Below, piece by piece: positions 5,985 to 51,671 of a stretch of 52,133 nt of DNA. The stretch covers positions 1-52,133 of the IMG/VR virus record IMGVR_UViG_3300036791_000029; one strand, written 5' to 3'. Below the pieces are notes generated by a model. The model worked only from the letters and a program-made list of their open reading frames with translations. It did not search any database and was not told where the DNA came from. Made by a program: the position numbers and the translations under genes. Position 1 is the stretch's first letter. The number at the start of each line of letters is the position of its first letter. Source of the stretch: a virus. Lineage: Duplodnaviria; Caudoviricetes.

Positions 5985-6013
5985 TAGACGTGTAACTCGA
6001 AATAGGCTATACT
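5985..6013 (+). promoter_or_regulatory. Putative sigma70-like promoter
   Basis: TAGACG-17nt-TATACT; same ACTAGAC/GCTATACT boxes as 10917..10945. Confidence 0.6.
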
Positions 6014-6127
6014 TAGGGACGATGGAACAGAAGCCGTCGGCCTACCCAAGATTGCCTGCTGCAAGAGAAATAACTATATGGTTTGTGATCTTGGTGATCT
6101 TTGTAAACTGTGAATAGGAGACTAAAG

Positions 6128-6877
6128 ATGACACCAAAACTATCGGTTGTCTCTGACAATACGAGTATGCCTCTGTATACAAATATGTGCAAGGCAATAC
6201 TTGAATGTCGTCGTGTAGATGAAGTTGCTAAACTACAAGACGATGTCAAGCGGCAATTGTATGGTCAGCAAGTAAAAGATGGCAATACAATGAAAGCTGC
6301 GCTCAATGAAATATACATTCGCGCTGAGCGCCAGCTAGGTGAATTATTGGCTGCTTTACCAAGAGCACCAACAAGGAGTCGTTACGATACCGGATTAGGT
6401 CGCGACACGCGACTTAATCCGGAGTCAAAACAAAAGGTTATGGCTGACAATGGCATTACTAAAGACAGAGCATCAAAAGCAGAACGCATTGCAAGAATAC
6501 CAAAAGCCGAATTTGAACAAGAAGTAGTTAAGCCCAAAGCCAGTATTAGAAGGTTGGCTGACTATGCAAGAAGCAAAGAACCACCAAAGCCCAAAAAGCC
6601 TGAGCCGAAGTGGTATGATCCTCATCTTGATTCCAAAGTGAGACTTACTGAGGGCCTTGAACGCATAGAACAAGGCCTGAAGATGGCTATACTGGGATTA
6701 AAGATTAAGGATTTGATCCTAGCGCGTATGCAAGACCAGGGCACAGAATTGCCTGAAGTAATGCATAGACTCAATAGGATCAGAAAACATATGGAAGCAC
6801 TGACTTTCATATGTCCTTGCCCATTACGAAATCAGAAGGCAATAACTCAACAAGTCAAGGAGACAATTGATGCCTGA
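6128..6877 (+). CDS. Hypothetical protein resembling the helical N-terminal domain of phage DNA methyltransferases, without an MTase domain
   Basis: ATG 6128 after AGGAG; VDEV...IRAERQLGELL...GITKDRASKAERIARIP..EFE pattern; no SAM-binding or DPPW motif. Confidence 0.6.
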   Translation: MTPKLSVVSDNTSMPLYTNMCKAILECRRVDEVAKLQDDVKRQLYGQQVKDGNTMKAALNEIYIRAERQLGELLAALPRAPTRSRYDTGLGRDTRLNPESKQKVMADNGITKDRASKAERIARIPKAEFEQEVVKPKASIRRLADYARSKEPPKPKKPEPKWYDPHLDSKVRLTEGLERIEQGLKMAILGLKIKDLILARMQDQGTELPEVMHRLNRIRKHMEALTFICPCPLRNQKAITQQVKETIDA

Positions 6878-7376
6878 GTACAATCCATATCGCAAAGTCA
6901 TAGACATGCTTATGCCCAAAATCCAGAATGGAGTTCTGTATCTGGATGAACTTGAAGAGACAATGATGGAGGTTGGGATACTACCATCAGACTACAAGAA
7001 GTATGATGGTATTCCCAAAAGACTTGTAGGCGCAATTGAACGTGATCATGATGAAACGTTCAAAAGAGCTTATGAGTCCTGGAAAAGACATCTCCATCAT
7101 TTTGAGCTTGTCTGTATTGGTGAACGGGCCAGTAGGTTCAAAACTAGGATAGCCTTGAGTTTTGAACCTCTGAAAGAGAATACTCAAGAGAAACAAAGAG
7201 ATGCTGGTGACAAGTATCTCAAAGCATTTCAAAGGCGAGCCAAGGTCATTTCTAGCACCTCAACATTTAATGAAGAGGATGCCAAGGAATTAGACGATTG
7301 GCATAAGCATGCGAAGATTGTACAAGAGAAAGCACAGCAACTAAGAGTCAGATACAATAGACGTAAAATCCAATAG
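6870..7376 (+). CDS. Hypothetical protein
   Basis: ~168-aa ORF, AGGAG RBS, overlaps upstream stop. Confidence 0.75.
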   Translation: MPEYNPYRKVIDMLMPKIQNGVLYLDELEETMMEVGILPSDYKKYDGIPKRLVGAIERDHDETFKRAYESWKRHLHHFELVCIGERASRFKTRIALSFEPLKENTQEKQRDAGDKYLKAFQRRAKVISSTSTFNEEDAKELDDWHKHAKIVQEKAQQLRVRYNRRKIQ

Positions 7377-7387
7377 GGTCTCAAACT

Positions 7388-7416
7388 AGGCTCCTGGCGC
7401 CCAAAAGCGCCAGGAG
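7388..7416. terminator. Hairpin after 6870..7376 made of two inverted octamer copies
   Basis: CTCCTGGCGC-CCAAAA-GCGCCAGGAG 10-bp stem; no clear U tract. Confidence 0.4.
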
Positions 7417-8486
7417 TATCCTTCCAGGATCAAAACCATCAATCATTTAAAAGAGAACATATCCAGAACTACCAATCAGTAGCCTGCGTTACAGATTAAC
7501 AAATGTTTAGCATTTTTGGCCCATAACCCATTGAAATCATTGAGCAGAACGTAACGGGAACAAGCAGGGTACAAACGCGAACGATTGCAGGGGCACTAGG
7601 GTAGTGCTGGGTCAACCCCTAGCGCACGCCTAGCACACATCCTAGGCTCGGGAAAGGGCAGGTCTCAAAAGGTAGCCTAGTCGGCCTGTTTGACCCGCCA
7701 AGGACTGCCGTCTAAAAACAAAGATCCGTCTAAAAATGAAGTCTTTCCCCAAGGACCAAATTGTGTTACCCTAATCCCTAGATCGGTGGACGACAGGAAG
7801 GCCCGATCGACTAGCGTAACAAAATCCTCCCGCGATCTTAGACAGGAGAATAGGACATCTCGGGAAGCCGGAAGGCCCACGCTAGGGCACTTCTAGGCGT
7901 CCCCTAGGCGCGTCTAGGCACCTCCCGATAGGGTAGGCACTAGGCTAGCGTCTAGGCTCTAAGCGCCCATAGGAGAGGCTTCTAAGCCTCTCCGCCAGGG
8001 TAGTCAGGGAAGCGATAAGGGCAGGTGACCGTCAAGGTTGCCTGGCGCGGGAATAGTAGCGAAAGCGAATGGATTTACCCGCCAGCTCAGACCAACTAGT
8101 TGGGTCGCGCTTAGAGCGTTTTGAACCTTGACCTCCAACGCTCACACGTTGAAACGGTATATCAGAAAGCATACGGGAAGCCACTAGAGTGGGCAGGATA
8201 TGCGCCCCTAGTTCGCGCAAGCCGGTATGTGAGTATGGTATATAGTGAATCAGGACTAATCCTTTCAAGGCTGAATACCTGGCGTAGATACGTTTATATC
8301 TACGCTGGCAAAACAGCGCACTGAAAGGATGATCCGTTGTTCCTTTCTAGGGGCAACGATGTATGTAGCCTCTGGCGGGATTGTACATCGTTGTTAATGC
8401 GGCCACGTATATGCATTTGTATATACGCGCTGGTGGGAAGCCCAGAAAACAAAACGCAGACCCAAACCCTAGTAAGGACACTTCAA

Positions 8487-8990
8487 ATGGCTAAGTTGAC
8501 TGCTTCCAAGGTTGCCTCTTTGCGTTCCTCCACAGCGCTGGCTACGCCAGTGTTTCACGTCTATGTTGTGGAGAACACTACTGATGGTGGCCGTTATGTG
8601 TCGGTGCGGAAGAACATTTCCGCCACGGCATTTTGGTCGTTGCTTTGTGTGGGTGCGCGCGATCCTAACTTTGATCAGCCTATCCACAACAGCATCCGTG
8701 TGATGGGTGATCAGAACTCATACCTTGAGGATTCACACCACAAGATCACTCGCGTCGCAACCTATACCTCCAAGACTGAGGCGCAGGTTGTTGCGGCCAA
8801 GATGATCGAGAACAACGCTATGAAGGCACGTGCCTACAACGCTACTCGGCCCAGCGCTGGGGCTTCCGCAGATTTTGAGTGGAAGTCAGAGGCTGAGTCA
8901 GCAGCGATGGTCAAGGCCGCAAAGGCCAAGACCCGCGCGCGCAAGAGCGCAAAGGTGACAGTTCCTGCTACCACAGAGGCTGTTGCCTAA
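8487..8990 (+). CDS. First early gene: degenerate GIY-YIG-like domain with Lys/Ala-rich tail
   Basis: ATG 8487 after TAAGGA; HVYVVENTTDGGRYVS, IHNSIRVMG and AYN echo GIY-YIG motifs; tail KAAKAKTRARKSAK. Confidence 0.6.
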   Translation: MAKLTASKVASLRSSTALATPVFHVYVVENTTDGGRYVSVRKNISATAFWSLLCVGARDPNFDQPIHNSIRVMGDQNSYLEDSHHKITRVATYTSKTEAQVVAAKMIENNAMKARAYNATRPSAGASADFEWKSEAESAAMVKAAKAKTRARKSAKVTVPATTEAVA

Positions 8991-8998
8991 GTCTACAA

Positions 8999-9109
8999 GT
9001 TGGGCGCCAGGAGTATATACGCTTCTGGCGCCCAGCGCCGTAGTGCGATGTGTGTCGCACCCGATGATTCCAAAAGGATGAAACGGCACTAGAAAGGAAT
9101 GGAACAATG
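8999..9109 (+). repeat. Early-cassette leader copy 1 (hairpin + hammerhead + RBS)
   Basis: TTGGGCGCCAGGAG/CTTCTGGCGCCCAG stem; ends CTAGAAAGGAATGGAACAATG. Confidence 0.85.
9037..9087 (+). ncRNA. Candidate type III hammerhead ribozyme (core variant)
   Basis: GCCGU-A-[GUGCGA ugugug UCGCAC]-CCGAUGA-[U UCC aaaa GGA U]-GAA-ACGGC: correct topology and GUA triplet; deviations U4C and a U.U pair at the base of stem II. Confidence 0.65.
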
Positions 9110-9280
9110 GAATACAACATAAAGCTATCTTGGCCGTCATACCAAGATACGCCCATCAAGGCAATAGACGAAATTGCCGATGCCTTCGCTGCCTTTCTCA
9201 AAGGACAATTCAGTATTGAATCCGAATTTGGTTTAACGGCAGAAGGAATCATCTTCACAATCTTGAAGGATGATGTTTGA
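9107..9280 (+). CDS. Small early hypothetical protein (57 aa, not in ORF track)
   Basis: MEYNIKLSWPSY...ILKDDV; strong RBS; TGATG overlap with next gene. Confidence 0.75.
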   Translation: MEYNIKLSWPSYQDTPIKAIDEIADAFAAFLKGQFSIESEFGLTAEGIIFTILKDDV

Positions 9281-9498
9281 TGGGATATGTTTTGGCAACG
9301 GGACATTGCATTTGCTGTGGACAAATCTTTAGCTTCAATCCACATCGAGTGCCGTCCACTTCAGCAATTACTGGTTCTCGCGAACCAGTATGTCTGAACT
9401 GCATGACCATCGTCAACCAGAAGCGAATTGCTGCTGGCGTCGCGCCTCATCCGATATACGATGATGCGTATGAGGCCATCAATGAGGATGAGTTGTAA
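9280..9498 (+). CDS. Small Zn-binding protein
   Basis: CICC...CLNC; translationally coupled start. Confidence 0.75.
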   Translation: MGYVLATGHCICCGQIFSFNPHRVPSTSAITGSREPVCLNCMTIVNQKRIAAGVAPHPIYDDAYEAINEDEL

Positions 9499-9589
9499 GC
9501 AACCTTAACGGAATGAGCGCCAGGAGTAACAAGCTTCTGGCGGCTCATTCCGCTAGCGTTGTGCTAGTCTAGAAAGGAATGGAACAATG
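9496..9589 (+). repeat. Early-cassette leader copy 2
   Basis: GCAACCTTAACGGAATGAGC...GCTCATTCCGCTAGCGTTGTGCTAG then AGAAAGGAATGGAACAATG. Confidence 0.9.
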
Positions 9590-10594
9590 GAAAACTACAG
9601 TCTCACAGACTTGAGTAATGTTTCGTTGGCAAAGATTACGCCAGCAAAATTTCGTGAGATGGCTCTAGCCAAGATGCTGAGTTCTGGACCAGGAATGGAC
9701 ATCAACTATATGCCAACTACAAAAGAGTTGGATGTTATGGTAGATATGCTTGCCACAGCTGTTGCTGCCGGTAGGTTTATTGATTTTGGTTTCTGGCCTA
9801 ACGAATTCATCATAAAGAGCAGCGAAAGGGCATCAAACCTATACTATGAGGGTGCTCTTGGTCATCCGTTTTCGCAACCTTGGGTATTCTTCCATACTTG
9901 GAGCGATCCAAAATTGGATGCTGCCTTTGGTCGTGATCACGACGCTGTTTCTATATACTTGGTGAATCCTTTCCCAGTCGATGGAAAGGCTGTTGCTTGT
10001 GACTTTGAGATCACAGCAATCGAGCCAATGAATGTCCTTGGAAAGCCAATGCTATGTGTTGGTGATCGTGGTGCGCTCTATTGCAAAATGGATCGCCCGC
10101 CTGGAGCGAAGTATGCTTGCTCGATAATTCCGGTCCAGTTTCGTTTTCCTATGCATTTCTGGAATGCATATGCAGACGAAATGGGTAAGGAACATGGAGC
10201 GCAAGCTGCCTTACAAGCGGCAGGTGCTAACATAATGGAGCCTGCGTTCTTGGCGCTTCAAATGCTCAATACTAGAGGCATACCTAAAGAGACGATGCGT
10301 GTTGATGATAGGTTAAATCGGGCACGTATCAAGAACAAAAAGCCACCGATACCACCTTACACAAAAGTGTCGAGCGAGGAATACATCACGACGTTTATGC
10401 GTTCTCCAACAGAGCGTCGTGCTAGCCAAGGTGGAACGCATGCTAGTCCAGTTGCCCATATCCGTATGGGTCATTGGCGGCATTATCAGAGCGGTGAACG
10501 AACGTTCATCAATGATACTCTAGTGAATGCTGATGAGAGTATGCGTAAAATCTTCAAGTCTAATCGTGCTGGGTATATAGTAAAGCAAGGTTGA
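9587..10594 (+). CDS. Early hypothetical protein with C-terminal HASP..H.R.GH.R motif
   Basis: 335-aa ORF; GGTHASPVAHIRMGHWRH basic His-rich segment. Confidence 0.8.
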   Translation: MENYSLTDLSNVSLAKITPAKFREMALAKMLSSGPGMDINYMPTTKELDVMVDMLATAVAAGRFIDFGFWPNEFIIKSSERASNLYYEGALGHPFSQPWVFFHTWSDPKLDAAFGRDHDAVSIYLVNPFPVDGKAVACDFEITAIEPMNVLGKPMLCVGDRGALYCKMDRPPGAKYACSIIPVQFRFPMHFWNAYADEMGKEHGAQAALQAAGANIMEPAFLALQMLNTRGIPKETMRVDDRLNRARIKNKKPPIPPYTKVSSEEYITTFMRSPTERRASQGGTHASPVAHIRMGHWRHYQSGERTFINDTLVNADESMRKIFKSNRAGYIVKQG

Positions 10595-10675
10595 CGGAAT
10601 GAGCGCCAGGAGTAATGACCTGGTTGCTCATTCCGCCAGCGATTATTGCTGGGTCTAGAAAGGAATGGAACAATG
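10582..10675 (+). repeat. Early-cassette leader copy 3
   Basis: TTGACGGAATGAGC...GCTCATTCCGCCAGC...GCTGG and same RBS. Confidence 0.9.
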
Positions 10676-10861
10676 GAGGATTTGCGGTATCACAAATGTG
10701 ATAAAGCAGAACAATTTGCACTAATAGATGCTCGTGGTATCTTTTGTTGCTATGTTTGCGATAAATGCAAAGCAGCAAAGATGACCAAGTATCGTCCAGA
10801 AATATTTACTGATCCGAACTATTGGCACGATGAGCCAATAGATATAGATGATGAAACGTAG
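10673..10861 (+). CDS. Small Cys-rich early protein
   Basis: ATG in the conserved RBS; CCYVCDKC; acidic tail. Confidence 0.75.
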   Translation: MEDLRYHKCDKAEQFALIDARGIFCCYVCDKCKAAKMTKYRPEIFTDPNYWHDEPIDIDDET

Positions 10862-10916
10862 ACACACATCTATAATGTTCCGATAACAAGATAATCTGTT
10901 TGAAGAAACAAGGAAC

Positions 10917-10945
10917 TAGACCAAAAGCCTAGGACGCGCTATACT
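10917..10945 (+). promoter_or_regulatory. Putative sigma70-like promoter inside the early array
   Basis: TAGACC-17nt-TATACT. Confidence 0.55.
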
Positions 10946-11032
10946 ATCGCTTACGGAATGGGCGCCAGGAGTAACATTCTGGTAGCCTATTCCGCCAGCA
11001 ATAGTGCTGGGCTAGAAAGGAATGGAACAATG
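10943..11032 (+). repeat. Early-cassette leader copy 4
   Basis: ACTATCGCTTACGGAATGGGC...GCCTATTCCGCCAGCAATAGTGCTGG and RBS. Confidence 0.9.
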
Positions 11033-11233
11033 GAAAGAAACAATATTGATGCTGCTGAAAGAATCATGCGCGAAAAGCGGTGTAGAATACATTCGTTTTT
11101 TGCAAGTGGTATTGCTCAATACGCGGTCAAAAAGGATCAATTGAGTATATCGCCAAGCTTCCGCAGTATTAAAGAACTGTGTGATTGGGTTGTTCTACAC
11201 CAAAATGCTATTGGAATGGAGGACCCAGAGTAA
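11030..11233 (+). CDS. Small early hypothetical protein
   Basis: MERNNIDAAE... from the conserved RBS. Confidence 0.7.
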   Translation: MERNNIDAAERIMREKRCRIHSFFASGIAQYAVKKDQLSISPSFRSIKELCDWVVLHQNAIGMEDPE

Positions 11234-11571
11234 TGGCGATCATAAAGATCAGTAAGCATCGCAAGTATCAAGGACCCAATGTTGTTGGTGTGAATGTTCC
11301 CAAGACCTGGCAAGGATTAGACAATATATTCTTGCATAGGTCCCAGGTAAAAATCGGCCTGCGACTAGTCAACTATGGCCGACTATACCACGGAACATTG
11401 TGGGAAGTTGTGGAAATCAAAACAGTATCTACTGGCGGCAGAGTGACTAAGGTTGATTCTGTGAAACGTTCAAATGATATTGTTGTATTACTGCGAGTTG
11501 GCAGTAATGAGACAACACAGCTGGGCTTTATCTACTTGTCCTATAGTGCAATATGGAGGACAACTGAGTGA
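11233..11571 (+). CDS. Early hypothetical basic protein
   Basis: TAATG overlap start, MAIIKISK... Confidence 0.7.
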   Translation: MAIIKISKHRKYQGPNVVGVNVPKTWQGLDNIFLHRSQVKIGLRLVNYGRLYHGTLWEVVEIKTVSTGGRVTKVDSVKRSNDIVVLLRVGSNETTQLGFIYLSYSAIWRTTE

Positions 11572-11753
11572 AGAAACCACAGAAGAGACCACCAACATTA
11601 TCAGAGAGATTGAAGAGACTTGAGAGTATTGTCAAGAAACAAGATCGAAAAATCAAAGAATTAGAGAAGAAAGTTGAACACGTATTGGATGAGGATGTAT
11701 CTGCGATACCCAATAATGATAAGTTGAACAGACCTACACAGCATCCTGAATAG
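11568..11753 (+). CDS. Small coiled-coil protein
   Basis: GTGA overlap, GGAGG RBS, heptad pattern. Confidence 0.65.
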   Translation: MKKPQKRPPTLSERLKRLESIVKKQDRKIKELEKKVEHVLDEDVSAIPNNDKLNRPTQHPE

Positions 11754-11844
11754 CAGCCTTGACGGATGGGCGCCAGAAGAACAATACTCCTGGCCGCCTA
11801 TCCGCCAGCGCTGTTGCTGGAACTAGAAAGGAAAAGGAACAATG
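11751..11844 (+). repeat. Early-cassette leader copy 5
   Basis: TAGCAGCCTTGACGGATGGGC...GCCTATCCGCCAGCGCTGTTGCTGG; RBS AGAAAGGAAAAGGAACAATG. Confidence 0.9.
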
Positions 11845-12153
11845 GCAATTGTATGGATACCTATGCATCCACGAGCGCATCCTGATATGCTTGGTTATCT
11901 CCCAACATTCTTACTTGAAAATGATCCTAGACCGGCCAAAGAACAATTCCAAGAAAGATATGTATTTGGTGGCTGGAGTTCATTTGCAGGTTTTGAATTA
12001 ATAGCAAATGACAAATTAAAGTATCCAGGTGATCCACCAATATTGCCGATCTATAGAACATATTTGCGTGATGAAGAAATAACGATGTATGAACATGCGT
12101 GGGTAATGATAAGACAAAAAGATGGAACTTGGGAAGTATCCAGAATGGATTAG
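11842..12153 (+). CDS. Early hypothetical protein
   Basis: 103-aa ORF from the conserved RBS. Confidence 0.8.
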   Translation: MAIVWIPMHPRAHPDMLGYLPTFLLENDPRPAKEQFQERYVFGGWSSFAGFELIANDKLKYPGDPPILPIYRTYLRDEEITMYEHAWVMIRQKDGTWEVSRMD

Positions 12154-12265
12154 CAGTATTGATGGAATATACGAACGTATCTACGTCGCGTATATACGAT
12201 CGTATATTCCACCAGCGCTGCGCTGGAAAGCCTAACTAACTCTGTCTAGAAAGGATGGAACAATG
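12151..12265 (+). repeat. Early-cassette leader copy 6 (apical stem replaced)
   Basis: TAGCAGTATTGATGGAATATACG...CGTATATTCCACCAGCGCTGCGCTGG; lacks the octamer but keeps the pairing. Confidence 0.85.
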
Positions 12266-12505
12266 GACGAAAAGTTCACTTTGATTGTGGAAGGCAAGAT
12301 GTCTCATGACATTACTGCCATAGCACCCCACGATCTAGAGTTGAATGGCCTTACTTGGCACAATGATTCGCCTCCAGATATTGTGGTCATGCATGATCTT
12401 ATACTTGTCAAAGTAGGCAAGTATACTTCGCATGAAAATAGATACCAATACAGGATAGCTGATGTTGCTCATCTTATTGGTGGTAGACTGGAGGCAGTGA
12501 GATGA
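12263..12505 (+). CDS. Early hypothetical protein
   Basis: 80-aa ORF from the conserved RBS. Confidence 0.7.
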   Translation: MDEKFTLIVEGKMSHDITAIAPHDLELNGLTWHNDSPPDIVVMHDLILVKVGKYTSHENRYQYRIADVAHLIGGRLEAVR

Positions 12506-12696
12506 GATGGAGAGAAACCCAGAAGGTGCCATTTAGATTAATACAAACACAATGCTGTGGAACTCAACTCTGTTGGGTAAATCCACGGCTGCCTATGCAT
12601 TGTCCTGAATGTGGTAAGTTTTGTTATCCAGCAGTAAAAGGCTGGGTAACAAATACATTTAACAATGCAATGCTTGTGTATGATGTAGAAAGATAG
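12502..12696 (+). CDS. Zn-ribbon protein
   Basis: CCG...CPECG; ATGA overlap. Confidence 0.7.
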   Translation: MRWRETQKVPFRLIQTQCCGTQLCWVNPRLPMHCPECGKFCYPAVKGWVTNTFNNAMLVYDVER

Positions 12697-12783
12697 CAGT
12701 ATTGACGGAATGGGCGCCAGGAGCAAATACTTCTGGCCGCCTATTCAGCCAGCACTGCGCTGGTGAAAGGAAAAGGAACAATG
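12694..12783 (+). repeat. Early-cassette leader copy 7
   Basis: TAGCAGTATTGACGGAATGGGC...GCCTATTCAGCCAGCACTGCGCTGG and RBS. Confidence 0.9.
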
Positions 12784-13248
12784 GAAAAGAATTATATGGG
12801 ATATGTATATGCATCAGCAGAACGCCATAAAGATACATTTAAGCGATATGAGGCTGGTGAATCTATAGAATCAATTGCCAAGAGTTATGGAGTGGTTCCT
12901 CAAACTATTCAACACCATCTCAAAAATATGGGTATCAAAACTAATTCAGAAACAAAAAGGCGATTGGTTGTATTAGCAAAGCAAAATGGTATTGATGTCG
13001 ATAGATGGCTAAGTATTTTACCAGAGAATATTGCATGGCAACAAATCTATTGGGAACGTCATCAATGCATGTTTAGAGCTGTGAATTTAGGCTTGCCTAT
13101 TAAAACAATTGAACATATATTCAATATATCTAGAGCACGTCTTTATCAACTAAGATTAGAACGTGAAAAAGGATATAGAAAACGACATCAGTCACCTGCT
13201 GAAAGATGGTTTTCATCTAGAAGATATTTGACTGATTTTGTGTCTTGA
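12781..13248 (+). CDS. HTH DNA-binding protein (two HTH-like segments)
   Basis: GESIESIAKSYGVVPQTIQHHL and GLPIKTIEHIFNISRARLYQL. Confidence 0.7.
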   Translation: MEKNYMGYVYASAERHKDTFKRYEAGESIESIAKSYGVVPQTIQHHLKNMGIKTNSETKRRLVVLAKQNGIDVDRWLSILPENIAWQQIYWERHQCMFRAVNLGLPIKTIEHIFNISRARLYQLRLEREKGYRKRHQSPAERWFSSRRYLTDFVS

Positions 13249-13275
13249 GAGAAAAACAACAGTAAAAACACCCTC

Positions 13276-13303
13276 TTTACTTCCCCGCGCGATCCGCTAT
13301 ACT
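13276..13303 (+). promoter_or_regulatory. Putative promoter of the replication operon
   Basis: TTTACT-16nt GC-rich spacer-TATACT; followed by palindrome TCGCTCGA-tg-TCGAGCGA. Confidence 0.55.
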
Positions 13304-13413
13304 CGCGTTTCGCTCGATGTCGAGCGAGTGCTCGTGTTTGTTCCCAGGGAGGTGGGCCTGGCAGGGTCCATCTCCCGTTACTGGAGGTTAACAATCAAAT
13401 AACAGGAGTAGAA

Positions 13414-13914
13414 ATGTCAGACAGTATACAAAATATAGTCAAACTAGCAGAAGAAATGGTAAAGATTGAAAGGCAAATAGAATCATTAAAGTCAGAATTA
13501 CAAGTTAAACAAGACCAGTTCAAACAAATATCCTCCATTGATCTCCCGACAATGATGGCCAGTATTGGCCTCAATAAGTTCTCATTGTCGAGTGGCTTTG
13601 ATATTGTAGTCAAGCCTGTCCTTATACTTAATAGACCACCACCAGAACGTATGGAGTTAGCCGATCAATGGCTAACGAAACACGGTCATGAAGGCATGGT
13701 CAAGACTACAATTGATATTTCGTTAGGTAAAGGATCAAGACGCATACCAGAGATCAAATATGTATTGGATAATTTGAAGATACAATATTTAGTCAAAAAG
13801 GATATCAATTACCAAACTCTCAATGCCTGGGGAAAGGAAATGGAAAGGGAAAACAAAGTAATACCTGAAGACATCTTCTCTGTACACAGATACAACATAA
13901 CGGTCATAGAATAG
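13414..13914 (+). CDS. Phage replication-module protein with N-terminal coiled coil
   Basis: AGGAG RBS; coiled coil then LPTMM..G..KFSL; directly before the SSB-like gene. Confidence 0.7.
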   Translation: MSDSIQNIVKLAEEMVKIERQIESLKSELQVKQDQFKQISSIDLPTMMASIGLNKFSLSSGFDIVVKPVLILNRPPPERMELADQWLTKHGHEGMVKTTIDISLGKGSRRIPEIKYVLDNLKIQYLVKKDINYQTLNAWGKEMERENKVIPEDIFSVHRYNITVIE

Positions 13915-13923
13915 GAGAACACA

Positions 13924-14772
13924 ATGGCAAAGCGTGTAATACGGCAAGACAGCGTGACTGAGAACCTTCCTGCTACTCTCACAGCAGAAGAGGAAATGCT
14001 GGCCAAGCTGGCACAAAAGAATACAGTATTTGATCGTAATGAACAAGTTGTTCCGCGTCTCAAGATACTACAGCCACTTAATCCTGAAGTTCAGGAAGGT
14101 GGCAGTGCCTATGTTCCTGGTGCGAAAGCAGGTATGTTTTATAATACCGCAAGTAACAAGTTGACTCCTGGCCAGGAGGGGATGATCATTTGTGTTATTG
14201 GTCATCAAAAACAGACTATTGAATGGGCAAGTAACAATCCTGGTTCTGGTCTCATAAAGATTTGGGGATCAGATGAAGGTTGGAAAGCATTGTGCGAACC
14301 AGCTCAGCGTGATGCTCTTAATCCTTTGACCAGGGAAGGTCATTATATAGATAAGCAGAGATCATTTCTTATCTTGGATATCAATACTCAGACTGGAGAG
14401 ACTGATCCTAGTTTCTTCAATCTGAGAAGCACAGGTAATCGTGTGGCTAATCTCCTGGCCACGATGTTGACACAAACCAGGATGAAGATGAGTAATGGTC
14501 AGACTATTACTCCACCATTCTATTACTTCACATACAAGATGACATTAGACTTGGTGCGTAATATTCAAGGTCAATCTTGGTGGTCTCCCAAGATCGTAAA
14601 GAATACCAATAAGGATAATATGCATGTAAAGACACAAGATATGCCGAAAGGTGATGCTATCTTTAAGCAGGCTATACTACTACAGGAACATTTCCTGGAA
14701 GGTGGTATTCAACAGAGCGATTGGGAACAGCCCAATGCTGATTTGGGTGGTGATAATATTCCTTCATTCTAA
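13924..14772 (+). CDS. Putative ssDNA-binding / recombination protein
   Basis: VPRLKILQ..PEV..PGAKAG..YN motif; SSB-style tail DLGGDNIPSF. Confidence 0.55.
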   Translation: MAKRVIRQDSVTENLPATLTAEEEMLAKLAQKNTVFDRNEQVVPRLKILQPLNPEVQEGGSAYVPGAKAGMFYNTASNKLTPGQEGMIICVIGHQKQTIEWASNNPGSGLIKIWGSDEGWKALCEPAQRDALNPLTREGHYIDKQRSFLILDINTQTGETDPSFFNLRSTGNRVANLLATMLTQTRMKMSNGQTITPPFYYFTYKMTLDLVRNIQGQSWWSPKIVKNTNKDNMHVKTQDMPKGDAIFKQAILLQEHFLEGGIQQSDWEQPNADLGGDNIPSF

Positions 14773-15000
14773 CGAGTAGAGGTTCCAGGCGGGTCTCCTT
14801 TCACATGATGGGCGCACATGGCGACATGACCATTCTCCCTAACAATAATGGGCCTCAATGGATTCACCCCTGTTATTGTATGGGTAAACTGTGCCTGGGT
14901 AAAGCGAAGACAGAAAGATTGGTCGCGGTATAGTATTGGGCAAACTATACAGGATGGCCTCCACCCATCCTCCCAATGCCCACTAATATAGGAGAGCAAA

Positions 15001-15489
15001 ATGAACAACACTTATATTCCTCTCAATCTAGCCAAAGAACTATTGGACAGATTGGATAGATACGAAACAAAATTAAACGTGATGGCAAAACAAATTGATA
15101 CAATATATCATGATGATTATGAACAATCATCAAATGTACAAGATATTCCAGATGAAGAATTGCCAATGGAAGAAAAGATCAAGAGGCTTGGACAGAAGAT
15201 ACCATATAATTTGATTAGTGACCCCATTGAAGTAATGAGATTCAAAGATTTTCTATATGAAGCCAAAAAGAAAGGTAGTCAGCTCAGTCAAATTGAACGA
15301 GACTTACTTGACATTGCTGATAAGAACTTTAATGATATTAGACTATCAAGTAAACATCTAAGTGTTTTGAAAAGCATATATCAGAGACTATATGGAAAGC
15401 AATGGCCTTTCAAGTATCAGCAAGGATACATGTATAAGTTGGAAGGCTATCAACCAGAATGGGAATTTTTTGAGGATCAGAGATCATGA
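15001..15489 (+). CDS. Hypothetical protein
   Basis: 162-aa ORF with AGGAG RBS. Confidence 0.75.
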   Translation: MNNTYIPLNLAKELLDRLDRYETKLNVMAKQIDTIYHDDYEQSSNVQDIPDEELPMEEKIKRLGQKIPYNLISDPIEVMRFKDFLYEAKKKGSQLSQIERDLLDIADKNFNDIRLSSKHLSVLKSIYQRLYGKQWPFKYQQGYMYKLEGYQPEWEFFEDQRS

Positions 15490-16427
15490 TTATTATAGGA
15501 GCAGGATTAGCTGGACTCCTGGCGGCCAGGAGATTAGCACATCATGACCCTATAGTATATGAACAGCAAGGATCGTTACCAAATAATCATAGTGCCTTGT
15601 TACGTTTTCGATCATCTATAGTTGGAGATGCTATAGGCATTCCATTTAAGCAAGTAACAGTATACAAAGGGGTTTTACTTGAAGATGAAACAATCACAAA
15701 TACTCCAACTATCAGAGAATTCAATTCTTATTCTATCAAATCAACTGGAGGTATCTATCAACGATCTATTGTTGATGTACACCCGGTTACACGCTTTATT
15801 GCACCAAACGACTTCGTGTACACCTGTAGTATTGGATCTACAATTCTATTCGCCCATGATGCTAAAGATTGTCTCTGCGGAATTGATAAAAAAGAACCTA
15901 TCATCTCAACAATCTCAATGCCCATCTTAATGAAGATAATCAATTATCCAGGTTGGTCGGAGTTTAATTTCCATACCAAAAAGATATGGACTATCAATTG
16001 TGATCTGGAAGATGTTGATGTATATCAAACACTATATGTTCCATATGGTGTTGATGAACCTTATAGAGTTAGCATTACTGGTAACAGAATGACATTAGAG
16101 TTTACTTTTAATCCTGCTGGAATAGGATCAAAAGATTTTATTGATCAATATCTTGACATTCTATTTGCTAATCATGGTATCATAGCTACCAACATAGTTC
16201 AAAAGGAACAAGACTATGGCAAGATTGTTCCAATAGACGAATATGAGCGCCAGAAGTTTATACTGTGGGCCACTGATAATTGGAACATCTATTCACTGGG
16301 ACGATACGCTACATGGAGACAAATACTACTTGATGATGTAATGAAAGACATAGGAGTAATAACCAAATTCATCGAACAACGCAACAACTATGCGCGACTG
16401 ATCAAAATAGGAGATAAAAATGCCTAA
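15486..16427 (+). CDS. FAD-dependent oxidoreductase (UDP-galactopyranose-mutase-like architecture)
   Basis: Rossmann IIIGAGLAG...VYE; C-terminal IYSLGRYATW flavin-binding motif. Confidence 0.75.
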   Translation: MIIIGAGLAGLLAARRLAHHDPIVYEQQGSLPNNHSALLRFRSSIVGDAIGIPFKQVTVYKGVLLEDETITNTPTIREFNSYSIKSTGGIYQRSIVDVHPVTRFIAPNDFVYTCSIGSTILFAHDAKDCLCGIDKKEPIISTISMPILMKIINYPGWSEFNFHTKKIWTINCDLEDVDVYQTLYVPYGVDEPYRVSITGNRMTLEFTFNPAGIGSKDFIDQYLDILFANHGIIATNIVQKEQDYGKIVPIDEYERQKFILWATDNWNIYSLGRYATWRQILLDDVMKDIGVITKFIEQRNNYARLIKIGDKNA

Positions 16428-16776
16428 AGTAAACTGGGCTGAACTATACTATCATGCTAAAAGATCAAGTGAAGAATTGAAGACTAGAGAAGGATTTAGT
16501 GATGGTATACAACATTTAGATGCATTCACAAATACTATTGAGAAGGATATTAATTCTGCTCTAAATAATCACAGCAATGTTACCAAAAATGAGATTAAAC
16601 ATAAACGAGCAAAGTCTAATTTCAATCCAAAACCGTGCAAGAATTGCGGTAAAATATTTCAACCTACTGGTAGTAGACATCTATGGTGTGAAAATTGTGA
16701 AACTCCATCCGATCAAAGACAAAAATTAATTGCTGAACTAATGAAGGATAATACTAAAGGAGGATACAATGCCTAA
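16420..16776 (+). CDS. Hypothetical Zn-finger protein
   Basis: CKNC...CENC. Confidence 0.65.
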   Translation: MPKVNWAELYYHAKRSSEELKTREGFSDGIQHLDAFTNTIEKDINSALNNHSNVTKNEIKHKRAKSNFNPKPCKNCGKIFQPTGSRHLWCENCETPSDQRQKLIAELMKDNTKGGYNA

Positions 16777-17515
16777 TGTAACACTACTGCATGCTACGCC
16801 AGAAGCCATCGAACTACTGATCTTCACCAAGAATACTAGGCTCAATATGGGCCCAAAAGGAATGGATGAGATATGCTCCTGGCCCATGGAGCGCAAGATG
16901 GAAGAACTCAGATATATGTCTACAACTATTCCTAGCAGTTGGGAGTTCGTTGATCTGATCTTTTGTATTGAGGGAGTATCAAGAGCATTTACTCATCAAT
17001 TAGTAAGAACAAGAACAGCAAGCTATGCGCAACAAGCTATGCGTATAGTTGATATGACTGGATTTGATTATCATGTTGGCCCTTCAATTAAAGGTAATCA
17101 TAAAGCAGAAGCGCGATATGAAGATGCTATGCACGATATTTCGGACACGTATCGTGAACTAATTGAGATGGGCGTCAAACCTGAAGATGCTCGTGGAGTA
17201 TTGCCCACAGATATACTCACCAATATTTGTATGAAGATTAACTTGCGTAATTTTTCTGATCTTGTCAAGAAACGTATGACACCACGAGTGCAAGATGAAT
17301 ATGCTGAAGTATTGACGCAAATGATTACTGTTGTTCTTATAGAATGGCCTTGGTCAGCACTATTCATTATGCCCCGTAATGTAGATGCTCATAAAAAACT
17401 AGCAGCATATCTCAAAGAACAACTAGACAAAGAGGTCAAATCAACAGGTAAATCCCAGAACGAAACAGAAGCTTGGGCAGCAATGAAGTATCTCGACATA
17501 CTGCGCCAGGAGTAA
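16769..17515 (+). CDS. thyX: Divergent flavin-dependent thymidylate synthase (ThyX) homolog
   Basis: FCIEGVSRAFTHQLVRTRTASYAQQAMR, EDARGVLP, NLRN..R..Q.E; RHR is RTR and the motif Ser is Ala. Confidence 0.85.
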   Translation: MPNVTLLHATPEAIELLIFTKNTRLNMGPKGMDEICSWPMERKMEELRYMSTTIPSSWEFVDLIFCIEGVSRAFTHQLVRTRTASYAQQAMRIVDMTGFDYHVGPSIKGNHKAEARYEDAMHDISDTYRELIEMGVKPEDARGVLPTDILTNICMKINLRNFSDLVKKRMTPRVQDEYAEVLTQMITVVLIEWPWSALFIMPRNVDAHKKLAAYLKEQLDKEVKSTGKSQNETEAWAAMKYLDILRQE

Positions 17516-17518
17516 TAA

Positions 17519-17836
17519 ATGTCAGACGAAACAATACGTCGAATGGCAGAAAACATCACTAAGACTTTAGCCAATGAAGGTAAACTACTAGAAGCAGGTT
17601 GGCAAACATATCGTTTGTTATGCTTGAAGAAAGGATTTCATGACCCTGCGGATGATTTACATGAAGCATTTGTTGCTGGAGCCGAACATCTATTTTCATC
17701 AATAATGAATATGCTTGATCCTGGACTAGAGGAAACTGATGGTGATATGCAACGAATGAATAATATTGCTAATGAAATAGAACCAATTAGAAAAATGTTA
17801 CAGCTTAAGTATGGTTTAGCAAAAGGGAGAGCGTGA
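17519..17836 (+). CDS. Hypothetical protein
   Basis: 105-aa ORF; RBS supplied by an octamer copy. Confidence 0.7.
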   Translation: MSDETIRRMAENITKTLANEGKLLEAGWQTYRLLCLKKGFHDPADDLHEAFVAGAEHLFSSIMNMLDPGLEETDGDMQRMNNIANEIEPIRKMLQLKYGLAKGRA

Positions 17837-18234
17837 TGCTCACAGATACAGATACCAATGGTTTTGTGATTACTGTAGATACATACTACAAGATGGGAGT
17901 AATGATCGAACAACTAGTAGCACAATGTCATGGAGCAGCAAGAGCAAATCATTGGTGGGATAAGGAACGCAATGTAGGAGAACTATTGTGCCTTATACAT
18001 AGTGAGATCAGTGAAGCAATGGAAGGGCATCGTAAAGATGCTAATGATGAACATATAAAGCTACAGAAATCAATTACAGTAGAATTGGCTGATGCTCTCA
18101 TACGCATATTTGATTTGGCAGGAGGATTGCGACTTAATTTGGGAACTTGTTTCGCAGAGAAATTCTATTACAATCAAGTAAGAGCAGATCATAAGATTGA
18201 ACACCGTATGGCGCCAGGAGGGAAGAAATACTGA
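17833..18234 (+). CDS. MazG-like nucleotide pyrophosphohydrolase
   Basis: LIHSEISEAME...ELADALIRIFD (ExxE...ExxD). Confidence 0.8.
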   Translation: MMLTDTDTNGFVITVDTYYKMGVMIEQLVAQCHGAARANHWWDKERNVGELLCLIHSEISEAMEGHRKDANDEHIKLQKSITVELADALIRIFDLAGGLRLNLGTCFAEKFYYNQVRADHKIEHRMAPGGKKY

Positions 18235-18524
18235 TGAGACCCAGCGAACAACTAGCACAACTAGCAAATCTATATGAAGAAAGAAACAAACAGTATGGAG
18301 ACAGTTACAAGGAAGCAGGAGCAGTATTAGGATCATTGTTTCCTAAAGGTGTCAACCTATCTGAGCATATTGACTTCAATAGGTTCTGTATTATAGTTCA
18401 TATGATAACAAAGCTATCCCGATACTGTAATAACTTTGAACATCCTAATCACGATGACCATCTCAAAGACATAGCTGTTTATGCAACTATGTTACTTGAA
18501 CTTGATGGAGTAAAAGAACAATGA
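18234..18524 (+). CDS. Nucleotide-modification-associated all-alpha protein (DUF1599/DUF6378-like)
   Basis: ERNKQYGDS...KLSR...DHLKDIAVYA pattern. Confidence 0.6.
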   Translation: MRPSEQLAQLANLYEERNKQYGDSYKEAGAVLGSLFPKGVNLSEHIDFNRFCIIVHMITKLSRYCNNFEHPNHDDHLKDIAVYATMLLELDGVKEQ

Positions 18525-19069
18525 TCATCTTCATGGATACAGAAACAACCTCACTCCTGGCGATCGAAGCTGCAGACCTTGCACACCAGCCTCACATCAT
18601 TGAGATTGCTTGCGTAAAGACTGATTATGATTTTAACATTACTGACATATATACTACATTAATTAAACCACCAATACGAATACCATTAGAGGTAATTAAC
18701 ATTCATGGTATTACTGATGAAGAGGTATCTGGCCAGAAGCCATTTGCTGGATACTATAGACAACTCTCTTCATTCTTTATTGGAGTAACACATCTCATAG
18801 GACACAATCTTCAATTTGATAAACGAATGTTAGAGAATGAATTGAAACGTATTAACAGAGTAACAAATTTTCCCTGGCCTCCCAAAAACATTTGTACTGT
18901 TGAAGAAATAATGAAGATCAAAGGGCATCGTATGTCTCTTAGTGATCTCCATTTTGAGTTGTTTGGTCAAGGATTTGAGGAAGCACATAGAGCAGAATCA
19001 GACACAATGGCATTAGTTAGTGTTTACAAAACTATGATCTATAGGAAAATGGTGGAGTTCAAACAATGA
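18521..19069 (+). CDS. DEDDh 3'-5' exonuclease (Pol III epsilon-like)
   Basis: MDTETT, GHNLQFD, AHRAESD. Confidence 0.9.
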   Translation: MIIFMDTETTSLLAIEAADLAHQPHIIEIACVKTDYDFNITDIYTTLIKPPIRIPLEVINIHGITDEEVSGQKPFAGYYRQLSSFFIGVTHLIGHNLQFDKRMLENELKRINRVTNFPWPPKNICTVEEIMKIKGHRMSLSDLHFELFGQGFEEAHRAESDTMALVSVYKTMIYRKMVEFKQ

Positions 19070-19407
19070 AAGCACCTACAACTATGGCAGAATTAGCACA
19101 GCACCGCCAAGAGCGTTATGAACATCGTAGGAGAGCAAGAATATTAGGTATGGCAATAGATCAAACTATACAAGGACTCAAAAACATAGCGGTGTATTCC
19201 AATCCCAAATTTTGGGAAGTAGATGATGAAGGATTAATGGATGTACAGAAATGGAAATCTATTCAATCTGATGCTGAAATAATATTAAATGATACAATAA
19301 GACTTGAGGAAAAATTGAGAACAATGGCTGACATCTATGCAAGTATGATGCCAACAAATAAAGAACTGGACATGTATCGTGATTACACAATTACAGATAA
19401 GGACTGA
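19066..19407 (+). CDS. Hypothetical protein
   Basis: 113-aa ORF, ATGA overlap. Confidence 0.65.
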   Translation: MKAPTTMAELAQHRQERYEHRRRARILGMAIDQTIQGLKNIAVYSNPKFWEVDDEGLMDVQKWKSIQSDAEIILNDTIRLEEKLRTMADIYASMMPTNKELDMYRDYTITDKD

Positions 19408-22282: not shown

Positions 22283-22419
22283 ACATAGGCTTTCCCGCTC
22301 TTTCTACAGGTGCTAGGCGGCGCGTATAGGGGTAGTCGGTAGGGGAGTAGCGGGGTATAAATTACCGCTCTAGAAAGGCTTCTAAATCGAAAGTAGTAAC
22401 GGAAACGAGAGGCAATAGA

Positions 22420-23889: not shown

Positions 23890-24244
23890 CATAATATTGA
23901 TCACCATCATTAGCAGCAGAGCCTTTGCCATCACGAAACCATATTGTTCTTATGGAGACTGGATTGCCTATCCATTGATCATACACAATTAGACCTTCAG
24001 GCGTTTGGCCTAAATATACAGCACAATGACTAGCGCCATCTGTTCTATTCTCATATACACCATCTTTAGAGAATGTAGCTATGCATGTGCCTTTAGGTAT
24101 GCTGGTATTGTCTTTAACCTTTGCGCCTCGTTTCCATGAAACAGTAATAGGTAAATCTCCTGCTTCTTGCAAGAAACGAACACAATGACCATTATCTATT
24201 ATTTGATCTTCATGTTCTTCAACATTATCCACTATGTAGCTCAT
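23879..24244 (-). CDS. BPSL0067/Tae2-like Cys-His peptidoglycan hydrolase; probable endolysin
   Basis: GHCVRF...WKRG...KGTCIATF...SHCAVYLGQ...YDQW; last gene of late operon. Confidence 0.7.
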   Translation of the reverse strand: MSYIVDNVEEHEDQIIDNGHCVRFLQEAGDLPITVSWKRGAKVKDNTSIPKGTCIATFSKDGVYENRTDGASHCAVYLGQTPEGLIVYDQWIGNPVSIRTIWFRDGKGSAANDGDQYYVIE

Positions 24245-51303: not shown

Positions 51304-51304
51304 A

Positions 51305-51622
51305 TTATGCCGCTTCCCCATCAATAATTTTGACAGGAGTATTCATGCGGCCATTGTCTGGTAAATATACTTTGACCCTACTAGAACTTTGGTTCGCACT
51401 AGTATCGTCATTAATGTACACTGTTTGACGTGGCTTGCCATATGCGCGATTAGACACAAACTCCATTAGACGAATGCGATCACCATGTGACATAGATGGA
51501 TCAGCAAACATCTCGTCAACTTGGCGAAGGATTGTGGGTGTGCGTTGACGACATTCAGTCATCATTTCGCGCAAGGTATAAATGCGCGCTAGCTCAGTGT
51601 GAGGATCGAAACCATCAGGCAT
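51305..51622 (-). CDS. Putative terminase small subunit
   Basis: Upstream of TerL; identical protein to 111..428. Confidence 0.6.
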   Translation of the reverse strand: MPDGFDPHTELARIYTLREMMTECRQRTPTILRQVDEMFADPSMSHGDRIRLMEFVSNRAYGKPRQTVYINDDTSANQSSSRVKVYLPDNGRMNTPVKIIDGEAA

Positions 51623-51671
51623 TACATTGTGACGTCCACCAGAATAACATTACGTACAAGAGACGTTAGCG

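Follow-up and report, generated by a model that had tools for sequence, protein, structure and literature searches.

Excerpts of the T7 literature describe five RNase III signals in the early mRNA of that phage, and RNase III sites with mismatches or loops at which single-strand cuts leave 3′ hairpins (PMC3867540). Prophage genes flanked by several hammerheads have been described in part of another account, which proposes the ribozymes as cutters of long phage transcripts (PMC3088659), and passages on prophage ribozyme clusters propose the same role (PMC3088659, PMC6765202).

A sequence-only reading of the window, the whole 52,133-nt stretch of tailed-phage DNA analysed here, had proposed a seven-copy structured leader at 8999–12783. 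All seven leaders lie where that reading placed them. Six of them (copies 2–7) form a single RNA family, named LH here, and copy 1 is a separate module built of a hairpin and a hammerhead-like fold, not another LH. The leader modules begin at, or adjoin, the stop codon of the preceding gene, and every one ends in a ribosome-binding site (RBS) module, CTAGAAAGGAATGGAACAATG. The RBS 18-mer GAAAGGAATGGAACAATG occurs exactly four times on the + strand (9092, 9572, 10658 and 11015) against 0.05 expected, and the remaining three ATGs are preceded by diverged forms of it. The modules are as follows.

8999–9036, + strand: copy 1 stable hairpin, from folding; GGGCGCCAGGAG ... CTTCTGGCGCCC
9035–9089, + strand: copy 1 hammerhead-like fold of type III, with CCGAUGA as its core (C in place of U4)
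9496–9567, + strand: LH copy 2; 101.9 bits; X GCAAC, X′ GTTGT; boxes TTAA / CTAGC / GCTAG
Through ATG 9587–9589, + strand: RBS module of LH copy 2
10582–10652, + strand: LH copy 3; 85.3 bits; minimum free energy (MFE) fold is the small-hairpin form
Through ATG 10673–10675, + strand: RBS module of LH copy 3
10941–11010, + strand: LH copy 4; 86.7 bits; X ACTAT, X′ ATAGT
Through ATG 11030–11032, + strand: RBS module of LH copy 4
11750–11820, + strand: LH copy 5; 81.3 bits; X GCAGC, X′ GCTGT
Through ATG 11842–11844, + strand: RBS module of LH copy 5
12150–12226, + strand: LH copy 6; 34.1 bits; basal pairing now TGGA/TCCA
Through ATG 12263–12265, + strand: RBS module of LH copy 6
12693–12763, + strand: LH copy 7; 98 bits; X GCAGT, X′ ACTGC
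Through ATG 12781–12783, + strand: RBS module of LH copy 7

LH comprises an outer 5-bp helix (X/X′), a 3-bp helix (UUG/CAG or GCU/AGC), an invariant A·C mismatch, a stable inner hairpin that is free in sequence and length, and a competing small hairpin (CCAGC/GCUGG), with the fixed RBS module 3′ of each copy. The fold is a near-continuous helix of ~26 bp with fixed mismatches, two of them 1×1, and its lower part is short (5+3 bp, two mismatches). The outer-stem pairs reported from the letters alone (GCAAC/GTTGT, GCAGC/GCTGT, GCAGT/GCTGC, GCAGT/ACTGC and ACTAT/ATAGT) can be read directly in the sequence and in the folds, the change from CGGA/TCCG to TGGA/TCCA is confirmed in copy 6, and the triple change of copy 2 (TTAA, CTAGC, GCTAG) is present. 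The A·C mismatch, which had been called fixed, is kept in 27/27 sense copies from the window and its relatives. The ORF before copy 3 terminates at the TGA within TTGACGG, and copy 6, whose homologue is L017:358–466, has a CGTATATACG-type palindrome in place of the inner hairpin.

When the window leaders were folded, every one was more stable than its own shuffles (z from −3.99 to −6.72). The MFE structure is the long hairpin in copies 2, 4, 5, 6 and 7 and the small-hairpin form in copy 3; the two are near-isoenergetic (mean difference −1.5 kcal/mol), and neither predicted fold reaches the RBS. Covariation was scored at 26 pairs in 25 distinct LH copies. In this alignment, which was fitted to the model structure and is biased in its favour, 90.7% of cells are paired versus 32–53% with slid partners; both sides change in 21/26 pairs, and 0/500 shuffles equal the observed values. 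The outer helix X/X′ is just 69.5% paired because its register shifts from copy to copy. In the small hairpin 90.1% of cells are paired, but its sequence hardly varies and double changes are confined to 4 cells. Further metagenome copies have unrelated inner hairpins and retain X/X′ and the junction. Several pairs are mostly G–U, the + strand folds better in 22/27 copies (3.7 kcal/mol on average), and the model scores 34–102 bits on the sense strand against 25–33 bits on the antisense. Because of the G–U pairs and the better + strand folding, the comparison supports the view that LH acts as an RNA of the sense strand. LH has no match among Rfam families or the models of known ribozyme classes, and its own model had zero matches on 693 kb of unrelated viral DNA.

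The hammerhead claimed for copy 1 is hammerhead-like by our search, with an RF00008 score of 25.7 bits, below the gathering threshold of 48.5 (E 7.7e-4, 131-nt search), and a C at U4. Its relatives are canonical: the core is CUGAUGA in 8/9 aligned homologues, and the alignment has 94.8% of cells paired and double changes in 11/15 pairs. The order of hairpin then hammerhead also occurs in L013, L011, L010 and L009. The substitution of C for U4 may disable the window's hammerhead.

The leaders occupy 8999–12783 as proposed, but the array begins earlier, at a twister-P1-like element. These upstream features and an internal promoter-like site are listed here.

5985–6013, + strand: TAGAC-N18-TATACT, a promoter-like site heading the rightward early operon
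7377–8390, + strand: conserved stretch of ~1 kb without a long ORF, upstream of the array
8391–8467, + strand: twister-P1-like ribozyme, RF03160, 25.4 bits, below the gathering score of 67.2
8487–8990, + strand: first gene after the twister-like element, 167 aa; ATG 8487, with TAAGGA upstream
10917–10945, + strand: internal promoter-like site; TATACT overlaps X (ACTAT) of LH copy 4

The twister-P1-like element (E 0.0019, 281-nt search) has its loop triplet GGG and 3′ triplet CCC swapped together, and these triplets, read by eye, are complementary in 15/15 twister-P1-like copies. TTG 8337 was rejected as the start of the following gene, as the ORF would cross the element. The ~1-kb stretch has 70–73% nucleotide identity to L014 and L017 across about 950–1000 nt, with indels that are not multiples of 3 and compensatory change in 38/248 predicted pairs among three sequences; it has no match in Rfam and is a candidate large structured RNA. 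The TAGAC-N18-TATACT motif matches twice in the window against 0.05 expected and recurs in L014, L017, L023 and L018, with the LH-overlapping arrangement repeated at L023:14166–14283. Both sites are putative promoters, and from the usual spacing transcripts from 10917–10945 would begin near the base of the inner hairpin.

The main new result of our analysis is that LH and ribozymes exchange in one slot. Twister-P5, twister-P1 or a type III hammerhead occupies the slot of LH in about 15 related contigs. Across 132 kb from relatives, a set that includes some near-duplicate contigs, 28/28 Rfam matches with E ≤ 0.05 belong to self-cleaving ribozymes and lie in the same cassette arrays; ten Twister-P5 matches exceed the gathering score. 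Among homologues of the gene at 11030, LH precedes 5/11, plus one cut copy, and others have Twister-P5 (L011), twister-P1 (L016) or a hairpin plus hammerhead (L010). LH precedes the gene at 11842 in the window, and twister-P1 does so in L151. In ribozyme leaders a stable hairpin comes before the ribozyme, and a similar hairpin is enclosed by X/X′ in LH. The stem-I 3′ strand of a type I hammerhead (L013:811–960), read by eye, is able to re-pair with a downstream copy, a refolding that parallels the three-way logic of LH. Because the slot is shared with self-cleaving ribozymes, orthologous genes included, a role in cleavage or processing is the natural reading of LH. Cassette order, compared as the earlier reading had suggested, differs among relatives: cassettes share 65–85% identity and are rearranged (c3, c4, c6, c5, c2 in L017), and homology blocks frequently start at leaders.

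Since related phages hold self-cutting ribozymes in this slot, the repeated LH hairpin most likely marks cut points that would turn a long mRNA into single-gene pieces. We put at about even the prospect that the leaders are intercistronic RNA-processing modules in which a host RNase III-type endonuclease cuts LH, with cleavage, site and enzyme all predicted. The processing switch of the sequence-only reading is supported in part, by slot equivalence and sense-strand RNA, its cleavage step staying a prediction. The polycistronic early transcript of this roughly 51-kb tailed phage would carry leaders between cistrons, in a slot accepting either a ribozyme (twister-P1-like at 8391–8467, hammerhead-like in copy 1) or LH (copies 2–7). 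The double-strand-specific enzyme would cut at the mismatch-interrupted base, immediately 3′ of the stable hairpin. This 3′ hairpin would remain on the upstream mRNA, and on the downstream mRNA CCAGC-X′-GCUGG would re-pair as a small hairpin at the 5′ end, ahead of the RBS. The products would match those expected from ribozyme modules, whose cuts are placed at the hammerhead and twister cleavage sites.

With its ~26-bp helix and fixed mismatches, LH fits an RNase III site. A Pfam scan of 30 ORFs found no phage-encoded endoribonuclease domain, and a PHROGs scan of 10 small cassette ORFs gave weak matches only, none annotated as RNase, so the nuclease would have to be the host's. Against an RNase III-type cut, the inner hairpin spans about 10 to 40 bp, a range that sits poorly with an enzyme gauging the length of its helix; a plain double-stranded site needs less sequence conservation than the invariant A·C and nearly invariant CCAGC/GCUGG show, and we know of no competing second fold at T7 RNase III sites. 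The ~14 nucleotides conserved around the invariant mismatch, with covarying stems, would instead suit a new self-cleaving class, already raised in the earlier reading, with the junction (UUGAY, A·C mismatch, CCAGC, GCUGG) as active site, the variable hairpin as peripheral stem and the small hairpin as post-cleavage fold. Alternation with three ribozyme types, including before orthologous genes, and the lack of an Rfam match favour this reading, as do excerpts describing how earlier classes were discovered through such neighbourhoods (PMC5737381, PMC6765202). We nevertheless consider it unlikely: LH is an almost continuous helix in which no multi-helix junction was found, it fits no known class model, and if X/X′ and CCAGC/GCUGG formed a pseudoknot the linkers would be 0–1 nt, probably too short. 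To our knowledge, most motifs near twister and hammerhead failed to cleave in tests.

That LH is uncut, serving as a decay barrier, an intercistronic insulator or a ribosome-set switch, we find distinctly unlikely, as it leaves unexplained the cutting ribozymes that replace LH before the same genes. The stop codon adjoins or overlaps X in 5/6 window copies, and ribosomes terminating there could melt X/X′ so that the small hairpin forms; the folds are near-isoenergetic. The RBS module contains GGAAUGG, the complement of the 3′ arm CCUAUUCC, so masking would be possible if the arm's own partner were lost; such a switch has no obvious output, however, because the predicted folds leave the RBS untouched. 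The reordered cassettes, the leaders that open homology blocks and the 21-nt RBS module, identical at many genes on many contigs, would also be expected if the repeats acted mainly as DNA, as homology or hairpin recombination sites like integron attC or the PeSL cassettes of T4-type phages; excerpts report PeSL elements to mediate such shuffling (PMC2839356, PMC4122927). G–U-rich pairs and strand asymmetry indicate RNA, shuffling can arise as a by-product of repeated RNA modules, and the outer stems vary and match no attC core site. No integrase family matched in Pfam among the 30 ORFs scanned, a subset of all ORFs, and a promoter-like match, weak at that, is found in just 2/7 leaders, the region's total of 25 being a modest excess over the shuffled mean of 16.7 (sd 4.0); a role mainly as DNA is improbable. 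A substrate mimic for RNase P, a long hairpin with R-CCA after it that is cut at the hairpin's 5′ base, would yield a downstream mRNA flush with a stable 5′ hairpin. CCA follows the inner hairpin in 26–27/27 copies, with R before it in 26, and transcripts from 10917–10945 would start at about the same base. But CCA is base-paired in both predicted folds, the position preceding it covaries as a base pair, and ribozyme leaders keep the stable hairpin on the upstream fragment; RNase P mimicry is the least probable of these readings.

RAGATH is the name for RNA motifs near twister- and hammerhead-associated genes. Like LH, these are uncharacterised structured RNAs in twister and hammerhead neighbourhoods; LH matched none of the families in Rfam, though a counterpart that is unpublished or unregistered may exist. 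The T7 signals R0.3 to R1.3 resemble LH as repeated hairpins between early cistrons whose helix is broken by non-paired positions. In T7, by the account excerpted, such positions guide a cut in one strand only, and the upstream mRNA is left with a 3′ hairpin (PMC3867540). The two share no sequence similarity, cleavage of LH is predicted, and LH differs in its invariant A·C, freely variable upper hairpin, conserved competing small hairpin and alternation with ribozymes. Prophage hammerhead and twister clusters place self-cleaving ribozymes between single genes or short blocks of phage operons; such ribozymes are present in this phage's clade, with weakened forms in the window, whereas LH fits no ribozyme model. 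The available portions of the prophage accounts describe no fixed RBS module, preceding stable hairpin or swapping of modules before orthologous genes (PMC3088659, PMC6765202). In T4-type phages, excerpts describe PeSL (promoter-early stem-loop) elements as repeated regulatory motifs with a stem-loop that bound small early genes and accompany modular shuffling (PMC2839356, PMC4122927); LH differs from them in having no consistent promoter, RNA-type covariation and a slot in common with ribozymes.

All seven leaders, the intergenic elements at 8999-12783 of the window, terminate in one and the same ribosome-binding (RBS) module, and every one folds far more stably than its own shuffles (z scores of -4.0 to -6.7). 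The sequence-only reading had described a single seven-copy structured leader; the shared module and folding bear this out across the array, but only copies 2-7 belong to one RNA family, hereafter LH. From 5' to 3', LH is organized as an outer helix (strands X and X'), a 3-bp helix (UUG/CAG or GCU/AGC), an A.C mismatch, a stable inner hairpin, CCAGC, X' and GCUGG. All 27 sense copies keep both mismatch bases (A 27/27, C 27/27), and the sequence bears out every compensatory pairing previously listed, the copy 2 triple change among them. Copies 2, 4, 5, 6 and 7 have about 26 predicted pairs, or about two turns of double-stranded RNA; the inner hairpin is shorter in some relatives' copies, and in copy 6 it is a quite different CGTATATACG-type palindrome within an unchanged LH frame. 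A small hairpin, CCAGC/GCUGG, competes with the long fold: the mean energy difference between the two forms is only 1.5 kcal/mol, and the minimum-free-energy structure is of the long-hairpin type in 24/27 copies. We set aside a pseudoknot combining X/X' with CCAGC/GCUGG, because its linkers would be only 0-1 nt long.

Pattern scans placed the module in approximately 15 viral contigs related to the window, and in some metagenome contigs as well. Searching with a covariance model built from five window copies, we obtained 29 matches for the window and its relatives together (E<=1e-6); 693 kb from unrelated viral loci yielded none (E<=1e-3). This negative control comprises 80 of 115 stretches in unrelated viral contigs that contain TTCCGCCAGC-N-GCTGG, a pattern that is too loose for the family. 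Matches to the RBS 18-mer in two high-GC records of 1.9 and 2.5 Mb (L021 and L022) lie inside coding sequence and were discarded as chance.

An alignment of 25 distinct copies, fitted to the model, has 90.7% of cells paired in the long fold, against 32-53% with slid partners; two-sided changes occur in 21/26 pairs, and 0/500 shuffles reach the observed values. The outer helix is 69.5% paired, being imperfectly aligned because its register varies between copies, and the small hairpin is 90% paired and nearly invariant, with four compensated cells. Many LH pairs are G-U, the + strand gives the more stable fold in 22/27 copies and sense matches score above antisense matches, which argues, at the level of sequence, that LH pairing acts in the sense RNA.

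Comparison with Rfam, the check by which the sequence-only reading proposed to judge novelty, found no known family for LH. The search of the window at gathering score returned no match for it, nor did any covariance model of the self-cleaving classes in Rfam (twister, twister-sister, pistol, hatchet, hairpin, HDV and others). At E<=10 over 4 kb, the matches were miRNA and snoRNA precursor models and one weak, partial sul1 riboswitch match; copy 7 alone drew miRNA-type matches only. LH is an RNA family without a curated counterpart, and the supplementary lists of motifs near twister and hammerhead ribozymes (PMC5737381, the 2015 ribozyme-neighbourhood paper) may hold an unregistered equivalent. 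No phage or operon content was found in the part consulted of a 2026 preprint on new ribozyme classes.

The first leader carries a stable hairpin and a hammerhead-like fold (9035-9089), in which three helices meet at a junction, two of them (stems I and II) capped and the third (stem III) open. Aligned with its relatives, it covaries in all three stems (nine homologues; 94.8% of cells paired, double changes in 11/15 pairs). GAAAC and GUA are present, and the core-adjacent pair of stem II is U.U in 7/9 hammerheads. The relatives' hammerheads score 31-38 bits against RF00008, and canonical-core hammerheads missed by the filters were read by eye in L011, L010 and L009. The window core is CCGAUGA, against CUGAUGA in 8/9 homologues, and thus departs from CUGANGA; U4 is important in the hammerhead core. 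The hammerhead previously noticed in copy 1 is therefore right in kind, as its fold and covarying homologues attest, but with a C at U4, alone among the nine, and a score of 25.7 bits, below the gathering threshold of 48.5, it may be disabled in this phage, as judged from its core.

A twister-P1-like element lies at 8391-8467, upstream of the range covered by the sequence-only reading. It scores 25.4 bits against RF03160 (gathering threshold 67.2; E 0.0019 in 281 nt), and the whole-record Rfam search gave no match there. Its loop triplet, GGG, is complementary to the 3' triplet CCC, the pairing that forms the twister pseudoknot, and this swapped triplet pair partly explains the low score; read by eye, the two triplets are complementary in 15/15 copies, with 7 different triplet pairs. 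Given this element, a start at TTG 8337 makes the called ORF too long; the gene that follows the element begins at ATG 8487.

The approximately 1 kb at 7377-8390 is bounded by a hairpin (7391-7416) and the twister-like element. It is without a long ORF and 70-73% conserved in two relatives; the indels have lengths not divisible by three, and the stretch includes a near-identical block of about 60 nt. Compensatory changes fall in 38/248 predicted pairs (three sequences), and Rfam gave no match for the region, which on its predicted fold is a candidate large structured RNA.

In the relatives, Rfam at E<=0.05 returned self-cleaving ribozymes (14/14 in 64 kb and 14/14 in 68 kb, some contigs being near-duplicates), of which Twister-P5 passes the gathering score and twister-P1 and type III hammerheads fall short of it. 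They occupy the same cassette arrays, directly 5' of the same RBS module in the examined leaders, and are usually preceded by a stable hairpin of the same kind as the LH inner hairpin. At orthologous genes, the leader position, or slot, is filled by different RNAs; several of the leader and twister-triplet classifications were made by eye.

Leaders of orthologous cassette genes in the window and in related loci (genes named by start coordinate).
Gene 11030, window: LH; among 11 homologues, five LH and a sixth interrupted at the locus end
Gene 11030 homologue, L011: Twister-P5
Gene 11030 homologue, L016: twister-P1
Gene 11030 homologue, L010: hairpin and hammerhead
Gene 11030 homologue, L020: another long hairpin
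Gene 11030 homologue, L013: leader of uncertain type
Gene 11842, window: LH; L151: twister-P1
Gene 9280, window: no leader; L011: Twister-P5; L013: type I hammerhead

Two further modules occur in the slot. One is a stable hairpin followed by a GCUUUGCCCGAUUAAGGG-like sequence (L016:4229-4324, L017:1193-1282, L149:992-1076); the other is a second long hairpin with a conserved base, UGAUCUAUGGAGGG...CCCUGGAGAUCA, and a variable top (L010:9023-9114, L020:1068-1217, L020:153-302).

An 8-mer, GCCAGGAG, is the building block of the leaders' stable hairpins; the window has 55 copies of it (30 on the + and 25 on the - strand) against approximately 1.6 expected, for example at 1241, 3641, 7391/7409, 14165/14171, 15516/15525 and 50674. 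Copies fall in every reading frame and point either way relative to genes, some of them forming the palindrome CTCCTGGCCAGGAG, and the density of the 8-mer is 0.7-1.9 per kb in all related contigs, compared with 0.048 per kb in the 693 kb of unrelated viral loci. A literature search found nothing on it as a phage motif; it may be a DNA motif of the host or the phage. The palindrome CGTATATACG recurs, together with close variants, at 1474, 5905, 8283, 8406-8427, 12164-12210, 50831 and 51774, with many more in L014 and L017; counted by the 9-mer CGTATATAC, there are 11 in the window and 19-25 in the loci of two relatives. They often form hairpins, and in some LH and twister copies they make up the inner hairpin.

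Megablast found no close cultured relative of the phage, and its best terminase match is 53.5% identical. The record, at 52,133 bases the whole IMG/VR entry, is 94% complete by CheckV. Its ends, 1-1100 and 51198-52133, repeat each other at approximately 94-96% identity, 51.2 kb or so apart, probably because two variants of a circularly permuted or terminally redundant genome were assembled into a terminal overlap. Its encoded proteins include terminase, portal, tape measure proteins and tail fibres with collagen repeats, alongside a Pol III alpha subunit, an SNF2 helicase, a VapE-like protein, ThyX and an RNase T-type exonuclease. Cassette proteins have only weak Pfam or PHROG matches, with an HTH in the protein at 12781-13248; these searches found no RNase-like domain among them, and a 335-aa cassette protein has no phage match. 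A scan of genome contigs for the host gave only a 51% terminase match in a Lachnospiraceae MAG, which is uninformative for the host. Two proteins in 13414-14772 match Pfam 'Pam3 gp33-like' (E 4.5e-23) and 'Pam3 gp34-like' (E 2.3e-24); Pam3 is a cyanophage, and this gives no evidence on the host.

The leader array lies inside a block, approximately 6,000-24,000, for whose genes the + strand is the coding strand. We rejected a promoter or terminator reading of the leaders after a site scan. A PeSL-type early promoter in each repeat is absent, with a 9/12 match only in copies 5 and 7, and the array region has 25 promoter-like sites against 16.7 +/- 4.0 in shuffles. No leader has a + strand intrinsic terminator (GC-rich hairpin with a U tract), and the sequence 3' of the leader stems is without a T run. 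LH sits between same-strand ORFs, and since the leaders hold no terminator-like site and the window has only two promoter-like sites of one conserved type, long transcripts spanning several cassettes are likely. The motif of these two sites, TAGAC-N17-19-TATACT, occurs at 5985-6013 and 10917-10945 (2 against 0.05 expected), as well as at L014:4444-4472, L017:2829-2857 and L023:14255-14283. The site at 10917-10945 overlaps strand X of LH copy 4; on its sequence, transcripts from it would lack X and start approximately at the inner-hairpin base.

In the ribozyme leaders, the cleavage positions of twister and hammerhead presumably place the cut just 3' of the stable hairpin. The upstream RNA would then end in a hairpin and the downstream RNA begin with a structured end; in the type I hammerhead leader, a downstream copy of the stem-I strand, seen by eye, allows a post-cleavage 5' hairpin. 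By analogy, LH would be cut between the inner hairpin and CCAGC, after which the downstream RNA would fold as CCAGC-X'-GCUGG. As to what makes that cut, the LH helix, about 26 bp long, almost unbroken and with mismatches at fixed positions, fits a T7-type RNase III site, and this reading by analogy has, in our view, about an even chance of being right. Mismatches or loops at T7 RNase III sites lead to single-strand cuts and a protective 3' hairpin, according to the portion of PMC3867540 consulted.

LH could instead be a new small self-cleaving ribozyme class, with the near-continuous hairpin housing a catalytic centre made of the invariant A.C mismatch and the UUGA/CCAGC junction, and with the cleavage product refolding into the CCAGC/GCUGG hairpin; none of the Rfam self-cleaving models recognizes it, and we consider this unlikely. 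Were it so, at least four cleaving RNAs would stand in for each other in the arrays, making them a natural 'ribozyme exchange', and the GCUUUGCCCGAUUAAGGG motif and the UGAUCUAUGGAGGG long hairpin would become further ribozyme candidates. Somewhat less likely still is that LH stays uncut and serves as a structural or ribosome-sensed switch. The cassette order does differ from that of the window, as the comparison proposed by the sequence-only reading revealed (c3, c4, c6, c5, c2 in L017), and shuffling of these 1-3-gene units is real; that the repeats act mainly at the DNA level, in recombination, is nevertheless improbable, as shuffling is equally well explained as a by-product of repeated modules. 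An RNase P-type site, to which the R-CCA following the LH hairpin would speak, is the faintest prospect.

Under the RNase III reading, the slot of this clade, a fixed place between a stop codon and an identical RBS module that is filled by a twister, a hammerhead or a plain covarying hairpin, suggests two alternative ways of cutting mRNA, by a ribozyme or by a nuclease-dependent hairpin. Exchange at orthologous genes argues directly, by comparison, that the leaders serve to divide polycistronic mRNA into pieces whose ends are defined and protected by hairpins. What self-cleaving ribozymes do for bacteria and phages is still described as largely elusive in the portion consulted of one account (PMC6765202), and the LH system makes this question approachable with a small reporter set, while supplying a new RNA family, perhaps a new ribozyme, and natural parts that could insulate genes in synthetic operons. 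In 2011, clusters of hammerheads were reported on the flanks of phage genes, with the proposal that they cut long phage transcripts (PMC3088659, in the part consulted). LH is thus a new RNA family in an arrangement of a known type, to which it adds the mutual replacement of ribozymes and a plain hairpin in front of orthologous genes.
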